Positions 8,320-54,929 of a stretch of DNA of 64,000 nucleotides are shown here, piece by piece (the stretch's first letter is position 1; every line of letters begins with the position of its first letter). The position numbers and the translations under genes were made by a program. The notes under the pieces were generated by a model. It had not been told where the DNA came from and made no database searches. It saw only the letters and a list, made by a program, of their open reading frames with translations. Source of the stretch: Ginglymostoma cirratum (Eukaryota); assembly GCA_024137785.1 (NCBI GenBank), contig JAHRHZ010000095.1, positions 1,114,013 through 1,178,012 on the forward strand, read 5' to 3'.

Positions 8320-8630
8320 AAATTTGTTCATGGGATTTGGGTCTCACTGGCTAGGTGTTGCATTGATTACCCTGCCCTAAGTGGCTTTGAAACATTTGTT
8401 GTGACCTTTCTTGAGCCACTGCAATCAACTTGGTGTAGGTACATTCACAGTGCTGTTAGGAAGGGAATTCTAGGATTTCAAGCTAACTACAGTGAAGGAA
8501 TGACAATATAGCTCCAGGTCAGGATGATGAGTGTCTTGGGGGAGAACAATTAGGTGGCTTTGTTCCCAAGCATCTGCTGCCCTTGTCCTTCTTGGTGGTA
8601 GTAGCCATGAGTTTGGAAAGTGCTGTCAAA
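8320..8630 (-). mobile_element. 3' fragment of the tRNA-headed LINE family
   Basis: Aligns by eye to 20690-21000 (gggaattc.aggattt, acagtgaaggaa, tttggaa.gtgctgtc). Confidence 0.7.
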
Positions 8631-8655
8631 GGAGAGGAAACAATCTCACAGTGTC

Positions 8656-11889: not shown

Positions 11890-12040
11890 CTTCCTAACTA
11901 ATGGCACTGTGGATGCACCTACAGCAAATGGACTGCAGTGGTTCAAGAAAGTAGTTCATCACCACCTTCTCAAGGCAATGAGAGAATAGATGATCAATGC
12001 TTACTGAGCCAGCAACACCCACATCCCATAAATCAACAAA
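11890..12040 (+). mobile_element. 3' tail fragment of the tRNA-headed LINE/SINE family
   Basis: ggactgcagtggttcaagaa..caccaccttctcaaggcaa..gccagcaacacccacatccca matches the reverse complement of 20690-20800. Confidence 0.7.
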
Positions 12041-13629: not shown

Positions 13630-15922
13630 CCAAAATATTCAACATGGTGCTCAGTTAAGAGTGGTGTACCGCAAAGATCTGTTCTGGGTTCTCTTCTATT
13701 TCTGATTGTTGTAAATGATTTGGATGAAGGAGTGGAAGGGTGGATTAGCAAGTTCGCAGATGATATGAAGGTAGGTCGCATTGTGGACAGTGCGGAGGGC
13801 TGTTCTAATTCCTGTTACAATTCTTTGAAGAGGTAACAAGTAGTTTAGACCATGGAATCCCAGTGGATGTTATCTATCTAGACTTCCAACAGGACTTTGA
13901 TAAGGTGCCTCACGGGAGGCTGCTGAGTAAGGTGAGGGCCCATGGTGTTCGAGGTGAGTTACTGGCATGGATTGAGGATTGGCTGTCTGACAGAAGGCAG
14001 AGAGTTGGGATAAAAGGCTCTTTTTCGGAATGGCAACCGGTGACAAGTGGTGTCCCGCAGGGTTCAGTGTTGGGGCCGTAGCTGTTCACTTTATATATTA
14101 ATGATCTGGATGAAGGGACTGGGGGCATTCTGGTGAAGTTTGCCGATGATACAAAGTTGGGTGGACAGGCAGATAGTACGGAGGAGGTGGGGAGGCTGCA
14201 GAATGATTTCGACAGTTTAGGAGAGTGGTCCAGGAAATGGCTGATGAAATTCAACGTGAGCAAATGCGAGGTCTTGCACCTTGGAAAAAAGAATACAGGC
14301 ATGGACTATTTTCTGAACGTTGAGAAAATTCATAAAGCCGAAGTACAAAGGGATCTGGGAGTGCTAGTACAGGATTCTCTAAAGGTTAACTTGCAGGTTG
14401 AGTCCGTGATTAAGAAAGCGAATGCAATGTTGTCATTTATCTCAAGAGGATTGGAATATAAAAGCAGCGATGTGCTTCTGAGACTTTATAAAGCTCTAGT
14501 TAGGCCCCATTTAGAATACTGTGTCCAATTTTGGGCCCCACACCTCAGGAAGGACATACTGGCACTGGAGCGTGTCCAGCAGAGATTCACATGGATGATC
14601 CCCGGAATGGTAGGCCTAACATACAATGAACGGCTGAGGATCCTGGGATTGTATTCATTAGAGGTTAGAAGGTTGAGGGGAGATCTAATAGAAACTTACA
14701 AGATAATGCAGGGCTTAGAAAGGGCGGACGCTGGGAAGTTGTTTCCGTTAGGTGGGGATACTAGGACCCGTGGGCACAGCCTTAGAGTTAGAGGGGGTCA
14801 ATTTAGAACGGAAATGAGGAGACATTTCTTCAGCCAGAGAGTGGTGGGCCTGTGGAATTCATTGCCACGGGGGCGCAGTGGAGGCCGGGACGTTGAATGT
14901 CTTCAAGGCAGAGATTGATAAATTCTTGATCTCGCAAGGAATCAAGGGCTAAGGGGAGAGTGCAGGTACGTGGAGTTGAAATGCCCATCAGCCATGATTA
15001 AATGGCAGAGTGGACTCGATGGGCCGAATGGCCTTACTTCCACTCCTATGTCTTATGGTCTTATGGTCTTCTAGGTTACAAAGGAACATTGATAGGATGC
15101 AGAGCTGAGCTGAGAAGTGGCAAATGGAGTTTAACCCTGAAAAGTGTGAGGTGATTCATTTTGGAAGGACAAACTTGAAAGCAGAATACAGGGTTAATGG
15201 AAAGATTCTTGGCAGTGTGGAGGAGCAGAGGGATCTTGGGGTTCATGTTCACAGTTCCTTGAAAACTGCCACCCTGGCGGATAGAGTTGTTAAGAAGGCG
15301 TATGATGTGTTAGCTTTCATTACTAGAGGGATTGAGTTCCAGAGCTGTGAAGTTATGCTCCAGCTATACAAAAGCCTGGTTCAGCCACATCTGGAGTATT
15401 GTGTCCAGTTCTGGTCACCTCATTACAGGAAAGATGTGGAAGCGTTGGAAAAAGTGCAGAGGAGATTTACCAGGATATTGCCTGGAATGGAGGGACGGTC
15501 TTATGAGGAAAGGTTGAGGGAGATAGGGCCTTTCTCTTTAGAACGACGAAGGATGAGAGGTGACTTGATAGAGGTGTACAAAATGATCAGAGGTATAGAT
15601 AGAGTGGACAGCCAGAGACTTTTTCCTAGGGTGGAGGTAGCTATTACAAGGGGACATAGTTTTAAAGTGAGTGGAGGTAGATATAGGGGAGACATCAGAT
15701 ATAGGTTCTTTACTCAGAGAGTGGTCGGGGCGTTGAATGCATTGCCGGAGAGGGTAGTGGAGTCGGCCTCATTAGGGGCATTTAAGCGGCTATTAGATAG
15801 GCATATGGATGATAGTATAAGGTAGGGGTGGAGGTTAGATAGAATTTAGGATTAGGGTAAAAGTTCAGCACAACATAGTGGGCCGAAGGGCCTGTACTGT
15901 GCTGTACTGTTCTATGTTCTAT
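13630..15922 (+). mobile_element. Outer CR1 LINE (13630-13807 and 15069-15922) split by a nested CR1
   Basis: SGVPQRSVLG..KFADDMK..AEGCS continues after the insert as RLQRNIDRMQS*AEKWQMEFNPEKCEV (ORF 15124..15825); (TTCTATG)n tail. Confidence 0.92.
13808..15068 (+). mobile_element. Young inner CR1 LINE, 5'-truncated
   Basis: ORFs 13863..14081 (YLDFQQDFDKVPH..SGVPQGSVLGP) and 14133..14918 (KFADDTK..LVRPHLEYC); (TCTTATGG)n tail; TTCTA repeated at 13803-13807 and 15069-15073. Confidence 0.95.
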
Positions 15923-19506: not shown

Positions 19507-20675
19507 TACTTGTTTTGCCTGTCTACCTGCCTTTGAAGCCTCCTTGAGTTGCCAACATGACTCACAGCAGAACAGCACCAAGGCATGTAAAGAAACTGCT
19601 GCAGATGCATCTCAGACGGTATTCATGGAAGGATGGAGATTGATTAATTATGTGGGGATTAGAAACTGCTGGATTAAATATGACATTTCAGGGGACACAA
19701 GTTTCCAACTGATAGGCAAGGATCATTACCACACATGTCAGGAGACATAGAGCTGACTCAACTGATAATGAAAGGCCATGAGTAGTGTTTCCATTGATCC
19801 ACATCATCTGTGATGGATGGGATGTGAAATTCAGTACCAGGTCACAGGTTAATGATGGCTAGAGAGGGGATTCACAAGGTGTGGTTCACACATTGGGGGA
19901 GGTGGTTAGCTTCACTGATAGGGCATTTGTTCTCAGCAAGATACCCTTCCTGTTGCTGGTTCCTTCATCAGGACTGAGTGCCTTTGAATGGGGAACCATC
20001 CCACATCCCCTTAAATCTGTAAACAGATCCAACAATTTGCTTTTCAGGCTTCATGTATATTTGGAGGTATACAAGTATACTGTGACCTCTTACAAGTCAC
20101 AATCCATGAAATCAGTCAAACTTCAGAGTCACAAAAGAAATTGCAATAGACTACTGAAGAACACATTACAGAACTGAATATGAAAGAAGAATGGGATACT
20201 TCACTGGCTTCTAAATTTGTGGAGCTAAAATCAAAGCTCACTTCTCTGCTAAGACAAGAAAAGAGAAAGTTCAAGAAGAAAGCCTGAACAACCGGCTGAG
20301 GATAAATCTAAACTTAAGAGTACCACCTCTGAAATAATGCAGTATTTATGAGATAACTGCTCAGCTAACAAGGTTGAAATGAAGAGCTGATAGAGAAAGA
20401 AAGAAAGCAGGATATATGACAAGCTGTGTACTAAGCTAATTAAAAGATTGCCATTTTACAGGAAGATTTGGAGCAACCTATATGTAAAACAAATCAGGCT
20501 CAGCAAGAGCAGCTACAGAAACAGGAGCTTGAGCTCAAAGCAATGCTTGAAGCAGAAAGAAGTAAAGCTGGACATTGCAAGGAACTGCAAATCACTTTCC
20601 TTTCAGAAACCATGATGGTCTCATGAAAGAGTTCAAGCAAGACACCATGAAGCCAAACAATTACTGAAGTAGCAA

Positions 20676-23600
20676 TTTTTTTTTCTATTCATTTTGTGAG
20701 ATGTGGGTATCGCTGGCTGGCCAGCATTTCTTTCCCAGCCCAAGTTGCCCTTCAGAAGGTGGTGGTGAGCTACCTTCTTGAACTGCTGCAGTCCTCTCCA
20801 GCTATGGGTTGAACCACAATGCTACTGGGAAGGGAATTCCAGGATTTTGACCCAGCGACAGTGAAGGAACAGTGATATATTTCCAAGTCAGGATGGTGAG
20901 TGGCTTGGAGGGGAACTTGAAGGTGATGGTGTTCCCATATGTCTGATCCCTTGTCCTTCCAGATGGAAGTGGTCATGGGTTTGGAAGGTGCTGTCTGAGG
21001 ATCTTTGGCGAATTTCTGCAGTGCATCTGGCAGATAGTACACAATGCTGCTACTGAGCGTCGGTGGTGGAGGAGGTGCATGCTTGTGGATGTAGTGCTAT
21101 CAAGCGGGCTGCTTTGTCCTGGATGATGTCAAGCTTCTTAAGCGTTGTTGGGGCTGCACTCGTCCAGGCAAGTGGGGAGTATTCCATCACACTCCTGACT
21201 TGTGCCTTATAGAAGGTGGACAGGCTTTGAGGAGTCAGGAGGTGAGTTACTTGCCACAGTATTCCTAGCTTCTGGTTTGCTCTTGTAGCCACTGTGTTCA
21301 TATGGTGAGTCCAGTTGAGTTTCTGGTCAATGATAACATCCAGGATGTCGATTGTGGGGGATTCAGTGATGGTAACACCATTGAATGTCAAGGGGTGGTG
21401 GTTAGATTGTCTCTTATTGGTGATGGTCATAGCCTGGCATTTGGGTGGCGTGAATGTCACTTGCCACTTGTTAGCCCAAGCCTGGATATTGTCCAGATCT
21501 TGTTGCATGTGAACATGGACTGCTTCAGTAACTGAGGAGTCACGTATGGTGCTGAATATTGTGCAATCATTGGCAAATATCCCCACTTCTGACCTTATGA
21601 TAGAGGGAAGTCATTGATGAAGCAGCTGAAGATGTTTAGGCCTAGGACACTACCCTGAAGAACTCCTGTAGAGATGTCCTGGAGCTGCGATGATTGACCT
21701 CCAACAACCACGATCATCTTCCTATGTGTCAGGTATGACTCCAACCACCGGAGAGTTTGCCCCCTGATACCCATTGATTCCAATTTTGCTAGGGCTCCTT
21801 GATGCCACACTTGCTTGATATCAAGGGCTGTCTATCTCACCTCACCTCTGGAATTCAGCTCTTTTGTCCATGTTTGAACCAAGGCTGTAATAAGGTCAGG
21901 AGCTGAGTGGCCCTGGTGGAAGCCAAACTGGGCATCACTGACAGGTGCTGCTTGACAACACTGTTGGTGACACCTTCCATCACTTTACTCATGATGGAGA
22001 GGAGACTGATGAGATGGTAATTGGCTGGGTTGGATTTGTCCTGCTTTTTGTGTACAGGATATACTTGGGCAATTTTACACATTGTCGGGTAGATACCAGT
22101 GTTGTAACTGTACTGGAACAGCTTGCCAGGGAAGTGGCAAATTCTGGAGCACAAGTCTTCAGTACCATTGCTGTAATGTTGTCAGGGCCATAGCCTTTGC
22201 AGTATCCCGTGTCTCTAACCATTTCTTCATATCACATGGAGTGAATCGAATTGGCTGAAGACTGGTATCTATAATGTTGGGGACCACTGGAGGAGGCCAA
22301 GATGAATCATCCACTCGACACTTCTGGCTGAAGTTTGCTGAAAATACTTCAGCCCTATATTTTGCACTGATGTGCTGGGCTCTTCCATCATTGAGGATGG
22401 GGATATTTGTGGACCTTCCTCCTCCAGTGAGTTGTTTAATTGTCCAATACCATTCACAACTGGATGTGGCAGGACTGCAGAACTTACATCTGATCTGTTG
22501 GTTGTGGGATCGTTTAGCTCTGTCTATCACTTGCTGCTTTCGCTGTTTGGCGTGCAAGTAGTTCTGTTTGATGGCTTCTCCAGGTTGATACCTCATCTTC
22601 AGGTATGCCTGGTGCAGCTCCTGGTATGCCCTCCTGCACTCTCCATTGAACCAGGGTTGATCCCCTGGCTTGCTGGTAACGGTTGAGTGGGGATATGCTG
22701 GGCCATTCGGTTGTAGATTGTGCTGGAATGCAGTTCTGCTGCTGTTGATGGCCCATAGCGCCTCATGGATGCCCAGTCTTGTGTTGCTAGATCTGTGCGA
22801 AACCTGTCCCATTTAGCACGGTGATAGTGCCACATGACACAATGGAGGTTGTTCTCAATGTGAAGGTGGGACTTTGTCTCCACAAGGACTGTACGATGGC
22901 CACTCTTACCGATACTGTCATGGACAGATGCAACTGCAGCTGGCAGATTAGTAAGGATGAGGTCAAGTATGTATTTCCCTCTTGTTGGTTCCCTCACCGC
23001 CTGCCATAGACCCAGTCTAGCAGCTATGTCCTGTAGGACCCGGCCAGCTCAATCAGTAGTACTGGTGCTGAGCCACTTTTGGTGATGGACATTGAAATCC
23101 CCCATCCAGAGTACATTTTGTGCCTTTGCCATCCTCAGTTCTTCCTCTAAGTGTTGTTCAACATTGAGGAGTACTGACTCATCAGCAGAGGGAGGAATAT
23201 ATGTGGTAATCAGCAGGAGGTTTCCTTGCACATGTTTAACCTGAAGCCATGAGAATTCATGGGGTCTGGAGTCAATTTTGAGTACTCCTGGAGCAACACC
23301 TTCCCAACTGTACACCACTGTGCCGGCACCACTGCTGGGTCTGTCCTGCCAATGGCACAGGACATATCCAGGGATGATGATGGCGGTGTCTGGGACATTG
23401 TAAGATATGACTCTGTGAGGTATGACTGTGTCAGGCTGTTGTTTGACTAGTCTGTGAGTCAACTCTCCCAATTTTGGCACTAACCCCCAAATGTTAGTGA
23501 GGAGGACTTTGAAGGGTCAACAGGACTATTTCTACCGTTGTCTTTTCCGGTGCCTAGGTCGATGCTAGGTGATCCATCTGGTTTCATTTCTTTGAGACTG

Positions 23601-23947
23601 TCGAGTTTGGTACAACTGAATGGCTTTCTAAGCCATTTCGGAGGGGAGTTGAGAGTCAGCCACATTGCTGTTGGTCTGGAATCACATGTAGGCCCGACCA
23701 AGTGAGAGTGGTAGATTTCCTTCCCTGAAGCACATTAGTGAACCAGATGGGTTTTTCTGACAATCGGCAATGATTTCATGGTGATCAGTAGATACTTAAT
23801 TCCAGATTTTTTAGAAATCTCTTTTCTAATTATTGAATTCAAATTCCACCATCTGCCATGATGGGATTCGAACCTGGGTCCCCAGAACATTAGCTGGGGT
23901 TCTGGATTAATAGTCTAGCGGTAATCCCAATAGGCCATCGAGTACCC
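20676..23947 (-). mobile_element. Full-length CR1/L2-group LINE: tRNA-like 5' head, single APE-EN + RT ORF (disrupted), no ORF1
   Basis: EN: LLTNIWGLVPKLGEL..WMGDFNVHH..ILDLILTN..SGHRTV; RT: GPDNI, PANYHLISLLS, GVLQGSVLG, IFANDCT, QQDLDNIQAWANKW; A-rich tail; probable TSD CTGAAGTA at 20664-20671 and 23948-23955. Confidence 0.92.
23863..23937 (-). promoter_or_regulatory. Pol III type-2 internal promoter (A box and B box) at the LINE 5' end
   Basis: Minus strand A box TGGCCTATTGG (23937-23927) and B box GGTTCGAATCCC (23874-23863). Confidence 0.75.
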
Positions 23948-24599
23948 CTGAAGTACATAAGGATTTGACTTTCAATCATGCAAAAAGAAATAAAACTGAA
24001 AAGGCTGAAAAGTTATTAGAGTAAGTTATAAAGATGAAAATATAGTGGACCAAAAGAACACAAGAGCTTTGGTAGAATTGGAATAACCCTAAGCATAAAA
24101 GCAATAGCTTTAAAAAGAGCTGGAAGTTATTAAGAAACAAAACAGTAAAAGTCAAGCAGATTTGAACCATTCAACACAGCATAATTAACAAGATCGGTCA
24201 GGGGCTAATCAAAAGAAAAACCTGGCCGTAATGCATCAGGATAAGCAAATTCTAGGACAGTAAGTGCAGTCCACAAACACTTGATAACACAAACAGGAAT
24301 GATGTACAAAATCACAGGTGACTGCAGAAGTCAAAGTCACCAATGTGAGATCTGGATGTATCAGCAAATTATAAAGACTCATAGGCTCACCTGTTGTTGT
24401 AAATAGTTAACTTCCTTTGGAAAAGTGGTAATTGTTTTAGCTGTACTTTCCCTTTAAGAGAATTCACCTTTAAGGGCTCCGTGTGTGATGTGTATACAAT
24501 GTTGCAATTCTGCCTGGCTGTTAACCTGTTGTGGGCCTGCAAGCTACTGATACAAAAATCATGTGTTTTACTGATTTAAATAAACTAAGGTATCCTGTT

Positions 24600-25527: not shown

Positions 25528-28500
25528 TCTTTTTATTGCAAAAATATACTTTACCCACAAAACTTTTATATATATACACAGGTACTAAAGCAGTTCTGTA
25601 GAGTCTTTGCATAGACTTTCTATAGACTGATTGCTAGACTGTTAATCAAGAGACCACAGCAGTGTTTTGGGGATCTGGGTTTGAATCCTCCCATGGCAGA
25701 TGGTAGAATTGTAATTCAATAAAAATCTGGAATTAAGAGTCCAGTGATAACTGTGAAACTATTGCTGATTGTCAGAAAAACCCATCTAGTTTACTAATGT
25801 CCCTCAGGGAAAAAAACTAACATCCTTATCTAGTCTGGCCTACATGTGACTCCAAACCCATGGCAATGTAGTTGAACTTAACTGTCCTTTGGTTAATTAG
25901 GAATGGATAATAAATAGTGGCCTGGCCAGTGATGCCCAGATTCTGTGAATGAGTTAATTAAAAATAGCTGTTCCAAGGGCAGTGTGTGGTGTTGGAGAAA
26001 GTCCAGGAGTACATGAAGGATCTCACAGGCAGTGCCCCTCTCACAACCGGCCAATTAATGTCTTGGTGATTGTTGGAAAGTCTGGTGATGAGTCATTCTG
26101 CCAAATGACTTTGACAGTCTGGTCAGGGAACCAGCTGACAGGATCAACCCTCTCCTTTTCCTGCAGGGGCTCGAAGACACAATGTGCTGACCACTACCTG
26201 ATGGACTTGTGGTCATAGTATTTTTCTTTACAAATTTTTCCACAACTACTTGGCACATTCCACAGCAATGAGGCCAAACTCATCCTTCATAATACTGTGA
26301 CCAGGTAGAACCTCAGTACAAAGTGATACTTGGTGTTTGTGTACTGAAGGTCTATGCACAACCTGATGCAGCTACAAATGAAGGTGGCCGTTAGGGTGAG
26401 GGTGGCATTGGGTACATCTTTTCCCCGCTTATCCAGATGTTGTACATGGTGTCCCTGCAGACATGGTTCATCTTTGACCTTCCACCACGTACAACAATAC
26501 CACGTACAACAATACCAAGAGTACCTCTCACCTGATGCCAAGGTTTCTACCTGCAATGGAGAGGGAACGATGCTTCCTTCAGCTCAGTTTCTGCCTCACT
26601 TTGCTGATACAGGCTTCCTAAGTTTTTGAACACACCCTGTCCTGTCTGAACCATATACCCAGCACCTTCAGGTAATCCGACCTGATGGTGAAGGGGATAA
26701 GGGATCAGTTGGCCCAGTTCCCAAAGAACTAGCCTCGCTCTTGCCTCAATTTACCTTGACTCTAAGGCCAATTTGAACTGGTCGCAGTCTGCGCACAGAC
26801 AGTGAATCTGAGTCTATGACCTGCAGGCTGCCGCTGCCTGAAATAACCACTCTCTCAGGCTCATATCCTTCCTGATGGATTCAGCGAAAGGCTCAATACA
26901 ACATATGAACAAGTTGACAGAGATTGTGGGCCGTTCTGTCTGACTCCAGATCTGATCGGGAAGCTTTCTGATTCCCACCAATTGATTGAGACTGCACTAA
27001 TGATGTTACTGTACAGCAGACGGATCCCTCCCGAAAGCCCATTTTGGAGAACACATCCTTCATGTAGGTGTGCAATATCCCGTCAAAGGCCTCCTCCTGG
27101 TCCAGGCTGATGAGGCAGGTGTCCATTCCACTGTCCTGCGTGTTGGTGTTTGTATCCCTGAGGATCACAAGGCTTCCGAGATCATCCTGCTCAATTTAGT
27201 AAATGTTTGATCAGGGTGAATCACTGATCCCAGAGTGGACCTGACCTGATTGATGATGACCTTACATAGGTTATAATAATCCACATTCAGAAGTGAGACT
27301 GGTCGCCAATTTCTGATTTCCACCCCCTCCCTCTTCCACTTTCAGATGAGGGTGATGATGCCTTTCCTCATAGATTTGCAAACAGTACTGACCAGAAGCA
27401 CACTGTCATACATCTCCAGCAGGTCTTGGCCAATCAAATCCCACAGAGATGAATACGTTTCATCTGGTAACCTGTCACTTCTGGGAGTTTTACTCTCCTC
27501 AAAAAACTCGAGAGACTTGGTTAGCTCATCCAGCGTCAACTGCTGGTGCAGTCTGTCCTGCATTCTGTCATCTAAAATTTCCATGATAGAGGACAGGAAT
27601 GACTGGGAGGCCAAGCTGTTTGTGGGCTTTGTGTCATACAGTCTGACATAAAAGGATTTGCTGATCTTCAGGATTTCAGACTGAGATGATGCCACCTTCT
27701 TCCTTCAGGTTACTGATCACAGAACACTAGCTGTGCAGCTTGTGGAAGAAAAAATGTGAGCACAACTCATCCTGCTTCATGGAGCAGAACTTGGATGGGA
27801 AGATAAGTAAGCCTGTGAGGCAAAGAATGGGGCTTTCTGGCTTTTCACCTCCTAGATTTCCTGCTTGATATTGACACACATCATCTGCAGCAGAAGTAGG
27901 TTTTGCATGCTTTTCTGGAGTTTGGACTGTTTTCCCTATCTCTCTATCACCTTCTGAACAGCTCTGAGGATGAAGAACCTCTTGATGTTTCCCATAACTG
28001 TTTCCCACCAGTCCACTGGAGACTCAAAGAGGGGTTTCACTGTTCTCCAACCGTTGTAATTCCTTTCAAACTCCTCACTGTGATTTGAGGTCAACAGTTT
28101 ATCATTCAGTTTCCACCATCCCGTGCTAGCCTACAGTTGTCCTGTAGGTGACTGTTGGCCAGCAGGAGGCAAGGGTCAGAGAACAACACTGCTTGACGTT
28201 GATGGACCTGACTGAGAACGCTCAAGATGTGAACAGGAAAACTATCTTTGAGCGGATAGACCTGTCTGGCCGTGACCATTTTGCTGTGCTCTGCCTGCAG
28301 GAGTGCTGAAGATGTTGTGCAGCTTAGCGACTTAAGCCATTCCATAAGAAATCTGGACGTGGTGTCCATCAATGATGCAGTTGAAGTGTCCAGCCAGAAT
28401 AACCAGCCTGGTTGTTTGCTAGAAGTAGTGGGAGCTACTGAAGAATAGTCCACCACTCACTCTTTACTGCCAGGGTGCACACGTTAATTAATCTCAGGGT

Positions 28501-30249: not shown

Positions 30250-30345
30250 GTTGCTCACCACCACCTTCTCAAAGGCAACTAAGATCAGGCAATAAATGCT
30301 GGCCAGCCAGTGATGCCCACATCCCATGAACAAACGAAAATAAAG
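30250..30345 (+). mobile_element. 3' tail fragment of the tRNA-headed LINE/SINE family
   Basis: gctcaccaccaccttctcaaaggcaact..ggcaataaatgctggccagccagtgatgcccacatccca. Confidence 0.75.
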
Positions 30346-53724: not shown

Positions 53725-54800
53725 ACTGGCAAGGTCAGCATTTAATGTTCACCTCTAATGATAAAATGGTGGTGAGCAACTTTCTTGACTTTGTGCAGTC
53801 CATATTGTGTAAGTATATCCACAATGCTGTTATGTAGGGAGATCCAGCAACAGTGAAGGAAAAATGAAATAGCTTGAGGTCTGGACGACATGTGGCTTTA
53901 AGGAAAACTTACATATAGTAGTGTTCCAATGCTTATGCTCTTCTTGTTCTTCTAGGTATTACAATCATAGGTTTGGAAGGTGCTTCTGAAGGAGACTTGG
54001 TGTATTGCTGCGTGCATCTTGCACGAGATACACTACTGCGACTGTGTATTGGTAATGTTTAGATGGCGGTTGAATGCCATTAAGTGGCTTGCTTTGTCCT
54101 AGCTATGGCAAGCTTTTTTGTTAATTCATGGGATATGGCTGTTGCTGGAAAGATCAGCATTTATTACTCATCCCTAATTGCAAATAAAATGAAGAAAAAA
54201 ATCATCCTTAGCTAACACTTGTGTGAGGCAACTGTGACATTCCATTTACCAATACAAGCATGAAAGTTTCCCAGCTGTTTCTGGATATGGGCATGAACCG
54301 TTCCCTTTCTCTAGTATCTGAGGCTGGTACTATCAACAAGCTGTACCATTATCAACAAGTATTCCAACATATGGTCTTATGATGGAGGGAGATCACTGAT
54401 GAAGTAGCAGAAGTTGTATGGGCTTGCATATTATCGGAAGAAAATCCAAATCTATATCCAGGGGCTGAGATGATTGATCTCCAACAAATGTAACCAACTT
54501 TCCTTATGCAAGGTAAGGCTCTAATCAGTGGAGAATTTTCCCCTGATTCTCATTGACCTGAATTTTGCTAAAGATCCTTTATGCCATCAACAAGATGCTC
54601 TGTAGTAAATCACCAAAGCTCATTCAAAAGTGCATTTCAAACCATAGTCTCCACAATGTAGGAGGATAAGAGCAGTAGGCCTATGGGGAAGCCATCACCT
54701 GCAGGTTCCTTCCAAGCCACATACTGGTCATCCTGATCTAGAACTACAATATTCCATCAGTGTTATTGGGTCAAAATCTTGGAATTTCCTTTCTAAGTAG
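53725..54800 (-). mobile_element. Scrambled old fragments of the tRNA-headed LINE family
   Basis: ggtggtgagc..cagtgaagga..ggtttggaaggtgct..gctttgtcct match 20760-21130; 54620-54800 is in the opposite orientation. Confidence 0.65.
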
Positions 54801-54929
54801 CACATTTATATCCCAGCATGTGCTTCTGATAACAACAGTCTAATAATAAACATATTATCTCACTGATATAAATGTAAGTTATCAACACTTAATAATAGAT
54901 AGAGTATATAAAATAGTAATAAATAATTT

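Follow-up and report, generated by a model that had tools for sequence, protein, structure and literature searches.

The window, i.e., the whole analysed stretch of 64,000 nucleotides from the shark Ginglymostoma cirratum, contains a decayed full-length copy of a LINE which carries a tRNA-Ser-derived head at its 5' end and belongs to a high-copy family with a single ORF for an endonuclease and a reverse transcriptase (RT). RNA polymerase III (Pol III) probably transcribed the source elements of this family over their whole length, as suggested by the tRNA-Ser head together with a sense strand without runs of four T (T4) and nearly without runs of three T (T3). Judging from sequence, we also lean towards the wider reading of a protein-coding retrotransposon with a 3.3-kb Pol III RNA, which would be translated without cap and AUG, would have been recoded to avoid terminators and would have produced a SINE by losing its ORF in a single event. 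The parts of the window copy are listed in Table 1.

Table 1. Features of the LINE copy and its partner SINE in the window.
Feature	Position	Strand	Remark
Decayed full-length LINE copy	20676..23947	-	7.0% from the family's commonest letters
tRNA-Ser-derived head	23856..23947	-	family 5' start = 23947
A box TGGCCTATTGG	23937-23927	-	aligned to tRNA-Ser
B box GGTTCGAATCCC	23874-23863	-	aligned to tRNA-Ser
5' region (head + UTR) common to LINE and 361-bp SINE	23640..23946	-	up to the stop codon preceding the ORF
Single 977-codon endonuclease-RT frame	20743..23637	-	interrupted by stops and frameshifts in the window copy
Short AUG-started frame, about 35 codons, in another frame, overlapping the ORF start	23480..23587	-	AUG in 16/19 copies; natural copy L033
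First in-frame AUG = codon 171, within the endonuclease (WMGDFN)	23130..23132	-	15/19 copies
Sole T4 of the window copy	22341..22344	-	missing from the family's commonest letters
3' tail + A-run, common to LINE and SINE	20676..20757	-	67/78 commonest letters identical
8-bp flanking repeat CTGAAGTA, possible TSD	20664-20671 and 23948-23955	.	4 nt away from the A-tail
Partner SINE copy (LINE 5' region + LINE tail)	25625..25965	+	match to the SINE

The first-pass annotation had described the copy as apparently full-length and flanked by a probable target-site duplication (TSD). The full length was borne out, whereas the duplication does not appear to be a family trait: a TSD-like flanking repeat was present in 1 of 17 full-length copies, namely the window copy, compared with about 4% of mismatched pairs, the copies being about 7% decayed. 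We took the ends of the LINE from the family alignment instead. A query consisting of the head and the endonuclease start matched, nearly always over its whole length, in the best 39 places besides the window, and most of the best-matching copies, compared as whole copies, span 3.2–3.3 kb and end in the same tail. Because such a query favours heads, we also sampled 40 copies by means of a 22-mer taken from the beginning of the ORF, which has 286 exact matches. In this sample, 26 copies start no more than 11 nt from the common 5' end, and the other 14 start further in, which makes the tRNA head, originally proposed from the window copy, a family-wide trait of full-length copies. No alternative 5' end was found among the ORF-anchored copies, and 16 truncated copies were without common upstream sequence. 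Copies picked for having no listed head match had heads in 3 of 13 cases and were truncated in the other 10. The upstream flanks of 34 heads were mutually unrelated except for two matches. As expected of an autonomous LINE, dispersed 5'-truncated copies end in a common A-rich 3' end, and the copies reaching the ORF start were roughly estimated at more than 1000 from the 286 exact matches and 7% decay.

Diverged fragments at three loci (L016, L111 and L114; 67–75% identical to the main family) also run into the 5' region, so that the arrangement probably predates the main burst. Decay affects the copies examined: the best 150 + 150 protein matches included no intact young copy, and the longest open frame comprised 615 aa. 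We found no sister family with a different 5' end, the diverged fragments forming no cluster, and no relatives among viral contigs. Proteins of 73% identity are assigned to the basking shark and the whale shark, and a search for longer proteins gave one match. The LINE sequence occurs in sequencing runs of several organisms; none of the runs listed is recorded as RNA, and contigs cannot give a start or level. Several further observations concern the same lineage. A basking shark protein annotated as "3'-5' exoribonuclease 1 isoform X3" (P0001) contains a 73% identical piece of the LINE RT, which reflects either exonisation or an annotation error. Two head-bearing loci (L375 and L387), in which the match stops at about 345–350, possibly represent another deleted or SINE-like form. 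The window itself holds older, more diverged fragments or tails at 923-1197, 8331-8634, 11930-12032, 30250-30326 and 53840-54802.

Both the A box and the B box noted on the minus strand in the first-pass annotation were found, and the head had its best match in tRNA-Ser(GCT) among 27 tRNA sequences from the same genome. Identity to this tRNA amounts to 21/22 in the boxes and 33/60 in the remainder (P = 0.0004), and in this alignment the boxes are better kept than the rest of the tRNA. The head is recognised by this alignment; ARAGORN called no tRNA in the window, head included, and Rfam gave no credible match to the head or 5' end in the window copy and 10 loci. Because ARAGORN misses the shark head too, its failure to find a tRNA in 60 foreign loci is uninformative. 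Like SINE2 elements, the LINE has a tRNA-derived head containing both boxes, but with 3.27 kb and a 977-codon frame it is neither short nor non-coding, unlike its 361-bp partner, which is both. Just 3' of the head (window 23815-23845 and matching copies), a subfamily variant (16 vs. 22 copies) abolishes one TTT out of the three that remain, and the length of the A/T-rich linker beside it differs between copies.

The partner is an abundant SINE consisting of LINE columns 2-292 (264/284 identical) and the last approximately 80 bases of the LINE, and its join sits at the boundary of the LINE ORF. This join had 8,699 exact 22-mer matches versus the 286 of the ORF junction, making it about 30 times commoner, and was also found, as a loose end, in three of four sequencing runs examined. 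LINE and SINE start on the same base, and the commonest letters of the SINE contain three T3 in 361 nt. The SINE was likely either produced by loss of the ORF from the LINE or the donor of the LINE's head. Shark tRNA-derived SINEs with LINE tails include HE1/HER1.

The commonest letters of 87 segments yielded a single frame, in which Pfam placed both Exo_endo_phos_2 and RVT_1. Variants present in at least 20% of copies show a dN/dS of 0.19, compared with 0.77 for rare variants; the ORF evolved under purifying selection. As the first-pass annotation had claimed, there is no room for the ORF1 of a canonical CR1 or L2 element, since the 5' end is about 290 nt away from the ORF and the interval has stops in every frame, and both the autonomy of the LINE and the missing ORF1 are supported. 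The endonuclease start at about 23505 given there holds as well, but the open frame itself begins about 130 nt earlier, at 23637. No in-frame AUG precedes the endonuclease, the first one coming after the endonuclease N-terminus, and a basic stretch lies N-terminal to this domain, as it does in relatives P0002 and P0003. Because the head, UTR and tail folded no better than shuffles (z from -1.2 to +1.2, without convincing covariation) and Rfam gave no match, we claim neither an IRES nor a ribozyme. The AUG-independent initiation of L1 ORF2 and the translation of engineered Pol III RNA provide precedents for translation of such an RNA.

The counts of T-runs in the first-pass annotation were reproduced: the sense strand of the window copy has one T4 and eight T3, and the opposite strand, credited with more than ten runs of at least four T, has 16. 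Relative to same-base shuffles, the copy has 9 instead of 27.6 runs of three or more T (none of 2000 shuffles as low) and 1 instead of 6.0 runs of four or more (P = 0.014), with a normal number of runs of two or more (123 vs. 124.6). The commonest letters of the family (3290 columns, 87 segments, 75 loci) bear out the predicted consensus without a sense T4, containing no TTTT, no TTVTT and three TTT, and thus, like a Pol III unit, no internal T4 or interrupted-T terminator. In 19 copies, 18 T4 runs were counted, every one in a separate bin. The T3 density of decayed copies is 3.4 per kb, or about 0.4 times the expected value. As a point against Pol III transcription, 20 T4 runs fall within the leading 285 nt of 61 LINE copies. 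Within the ORF, two T3 runs were found versus 11.5 under synonymous shuffling (about 6-fold low, none of 3000 shuffles as low), so that the loss exceeds what base and codon composition explain. Phe codons are skewed as suspected, with 16 TTC and one TTT (P = 0.006), and NTT codons for Ile, Val or Leu are followed by T in 0/12 vs. 46/120 cases (P = 0.008). Neither T4 alone (0 vs. 1.6, P = 0.17) nor the creation of TTT by shared variants (0/221 vs. 14/1993 sites) showed a significant difference. Mutations to T after insertion are equally frequent whether or not they make a TTT, so that the loss does not stem from a mutation bias.

T clusters interrupted by A (TATT 0 vs. 6.2, TTAT 0 vs. 3.8) or C (TTCT 1 vs. 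8.5, TCTT 3 vs. 7.5) are depleted too, but those interrupted by G are not (TGTT 9 vs. 6.6, TTGT 7 vs. 5.4), an exception noticed post hoc among 22 motifs. CpG decay as its source was rejected by a test on the family columns. Seen from sequence alone, the pattern fits the behaviour of human Pol III, for which T2GT2 is described as almost inactive, whereas T clusters with other interruptions are described as terminating (PMC3141230, in its part on T clusters). Since an isolated T3 is almost inactive as a human terminator according to the same part of that paper, the loss of TTT goes past the human threshold, and accounting for it would require pausing that adds up along the element or an enzyme that is stricter in the shark. 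With these data, we see hardly any chance for a one-off SINE-LINE chimera whose T-run loss follows from base composition. Chance joins do happen, given the roughly 30-fold excess of SINEs with the same head (L123), but the head-to-ORF order recurs in the 39 other best-matching places and the 26 of 40 ORF-anchored copies, and the composition and codon nulls were rejected; together, these results refute the chimera.

Other LINEs served as controls for the depletion. Shark CR1 sequence (43 kb from 20 loci) contains 11.8 T3 per kb vs. 10.5 expected by composition, and one intact shark CR1 ORF is mildly low in TTT compared with shuffles (41 vs. 52.8, P = 0.006), so that the comparison called for with other shark LINEs revealed at most a mild depletion in CR1. 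The CR1 element of the window has three sense runs of at least four T, in line with the earlier count of at least three. This element (13808-15068) is a member of a young family with copies 96–97% identical, of which an intact 1002-codon ORF2 was found at L134:251-3256 on the minus strand. In 123 foreign LINE ORFs, the T3 ratio ranged from 0.75 to 1.22 vs. 0.17 in the shark LINE, although here a column majority is compared with single sequences; 37 of 160 loci had been dropped from this set as lacking an ORF of at least 450 aa bearing an RT motif. A B-box pattern occurred upstream of 1 of the 123, only 59 of which have more than 700 nt of upstream sequence. Loci L230-L309 are eukaryotic LINE contigs in many prokaryotic MAGs, especially symbiont bins, probably as host contamination.

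The controls bear on the possibility that the element is a Pol II LINE which took over the 5' end of a SINE, with the head or UTR acting as a Pol II promoter and U-clusters being avoided for other reasons, such as U-rich decay or splicing signals or weak rU:dA hybrids in reverse transcription. Such pressures should weigh on other LINEs as well, yet depletion there is slight or absent, and the selectively kept boxes and the start on the same base as the SINE also speak against this rival. Moreover, neither poly(A) signals nor pyrimidine-tract/AG motifs are depleted, and avoidance of splicing or polyadenylation is not supported as the cause. On the other hand, Pol II transcription would suit the loss of TTT beyond the human terminator threshold, the lack of a structure accounting for uncapped translation, and the description of LINEs as Pol II transcripts in the relevant parts of PMC10886601 and PMC5786205; the former also assigns non-LTR elements to Pol II there and describes Pol III as limiting their length and as too weakly processive for autonomous elements. 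It would further suit a weak excess of G at position -1 (12/39 intact LINE heads against a background of 17%, P = 0.028), which could hint at a cap-derived G and hence capped RNA; the SINE has this G in 4 of 22 cases, and the difference between LINE and SINE is not significant (P = 0.37). On balance, we consider transcription by Pol II unlikely.

Pol III transcription remains the simplest joint account of the kept boxes, the start shared with the SINE, the unrelated flanks and the terminator-like depletion across the ORF. In the proposed course of events, TFIIIC would have bound the A and B boxes of the head, Pol III would have traversed the 3.3 kb owing to the removal of terminators by selection, and it would have halted at the first T-run of the flanking DNA. 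The uncapped RNA may have been translated from a non-AUG codon or, through a frameshift or reinitiation, from the short frame that overlaps the ORF start, and this translated RNA itself would then have been copied in cis by target-primed reverse transcription. Duties might alternatively be split, with Pol III making the template RNA and the protein being supplied in trans by separate, capped read-through transcripts which Pol II makes from the same family. Such a division, which we hold to be less likely still than transcription by Pol II, removes the need for uncapped translation, and the partner SINEs do indicate that the enzyme acts in trans. However, the purifying selection on the ORF in copies starting with the head is easiest to understand if the copied RNA is also the translated one, and the absent AUG still needs explaining.

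To our knowledge, Pol III is not known to make protein-coding retrotransposons. Should the element both be transcribed by Pol III and have this RNA translated, and only then would it be categorically new, it would break the rule by which LINEs depend on Pol II and Pol III serves only non-coding SINEs, and would represent a natural long Pol III message undergoing translation. It would also offer a direct route to a SINE by ORF deletion, an evolved map of the T motifs tolerated by vertebrate Pol III across kilobases, and a compact single-ORF retrotransposon that may be usable in reporters. The architecture, with the head on the LINE and a SINE made from the two ends of the LINE, is family-wide on the sequence evidence and stands regardless of the polymerase.

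We found no description of an autonomous tRNA-headed LINE in the literature searched; the search covered papers and not Repbase or Dfam, where a consensus may already be deposited. The SINEs SacSINE1 and CmiSINE with L2-2_CM likewise have tRNA heads with A and B boxes and a 3' tail shared with a LINE, but as far as the account in PMC5499810 goes, the tRNA-Ala head of CmiSINE is accompanied by a CORE domain, a Deu domain is present in SacSINE1, and only the tail is reported as LINE-shared, whereas here the coding LINE itself bears the head. Bipartite SINEs of RTE and Vingi LINEs also consist of LINE 5' and 3' parts (Kojima 2018, PMC5786205); as presented in the part of that paper drawn on here, they arose by adding a small-RNA head to a Pol II bipartite LINE, and bipartite forms are listed only for RTE, Ingi, Vingi and R2, whereas the head described here belongs to the autonomous element. 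Small-RNA-derived Pol III promoters also occur in the retrotransposons Cassandra, Helenus and Ajax (TRIMp3), which PMC10886601, in its section on them, describes as LTR elements that are short (1,263 bp at most), non-coding and non-autonomous. R2 resembles the shark LINE in its single ORF, and its RNA is described as no ordinary capped mRNA, with cap-independent translation suggested (PMC12203849, in part), but the endonuclease is of a different type. An HDV-like ribozyme as in R2 gave no Rfam match at the 5' end of the window copy or of 10 loci, although divergent ribozymes may escape such a search.

The shark LINE looks like a member of the CR1 group, possibly CR1-Zenon, and shares with it the APE endonuclease and the RT, but differs in the missing ORF1, the tRNA head and the T-cluster depletion. 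A quick tree placed it apart from shark CR1; 12 of its 50 rows were mis-trimmed, which produced a false long-branch group. Relatives of about 40% identity and 935–990 aa were found on contigs of 3.3–4.1 kb, one of them from amphioxus. The annotated start of an amphioxus relative (P0005) lies inside the endonuclease, like the first AUG of the LINE, and this protein, too, may be without an upstream AUG.
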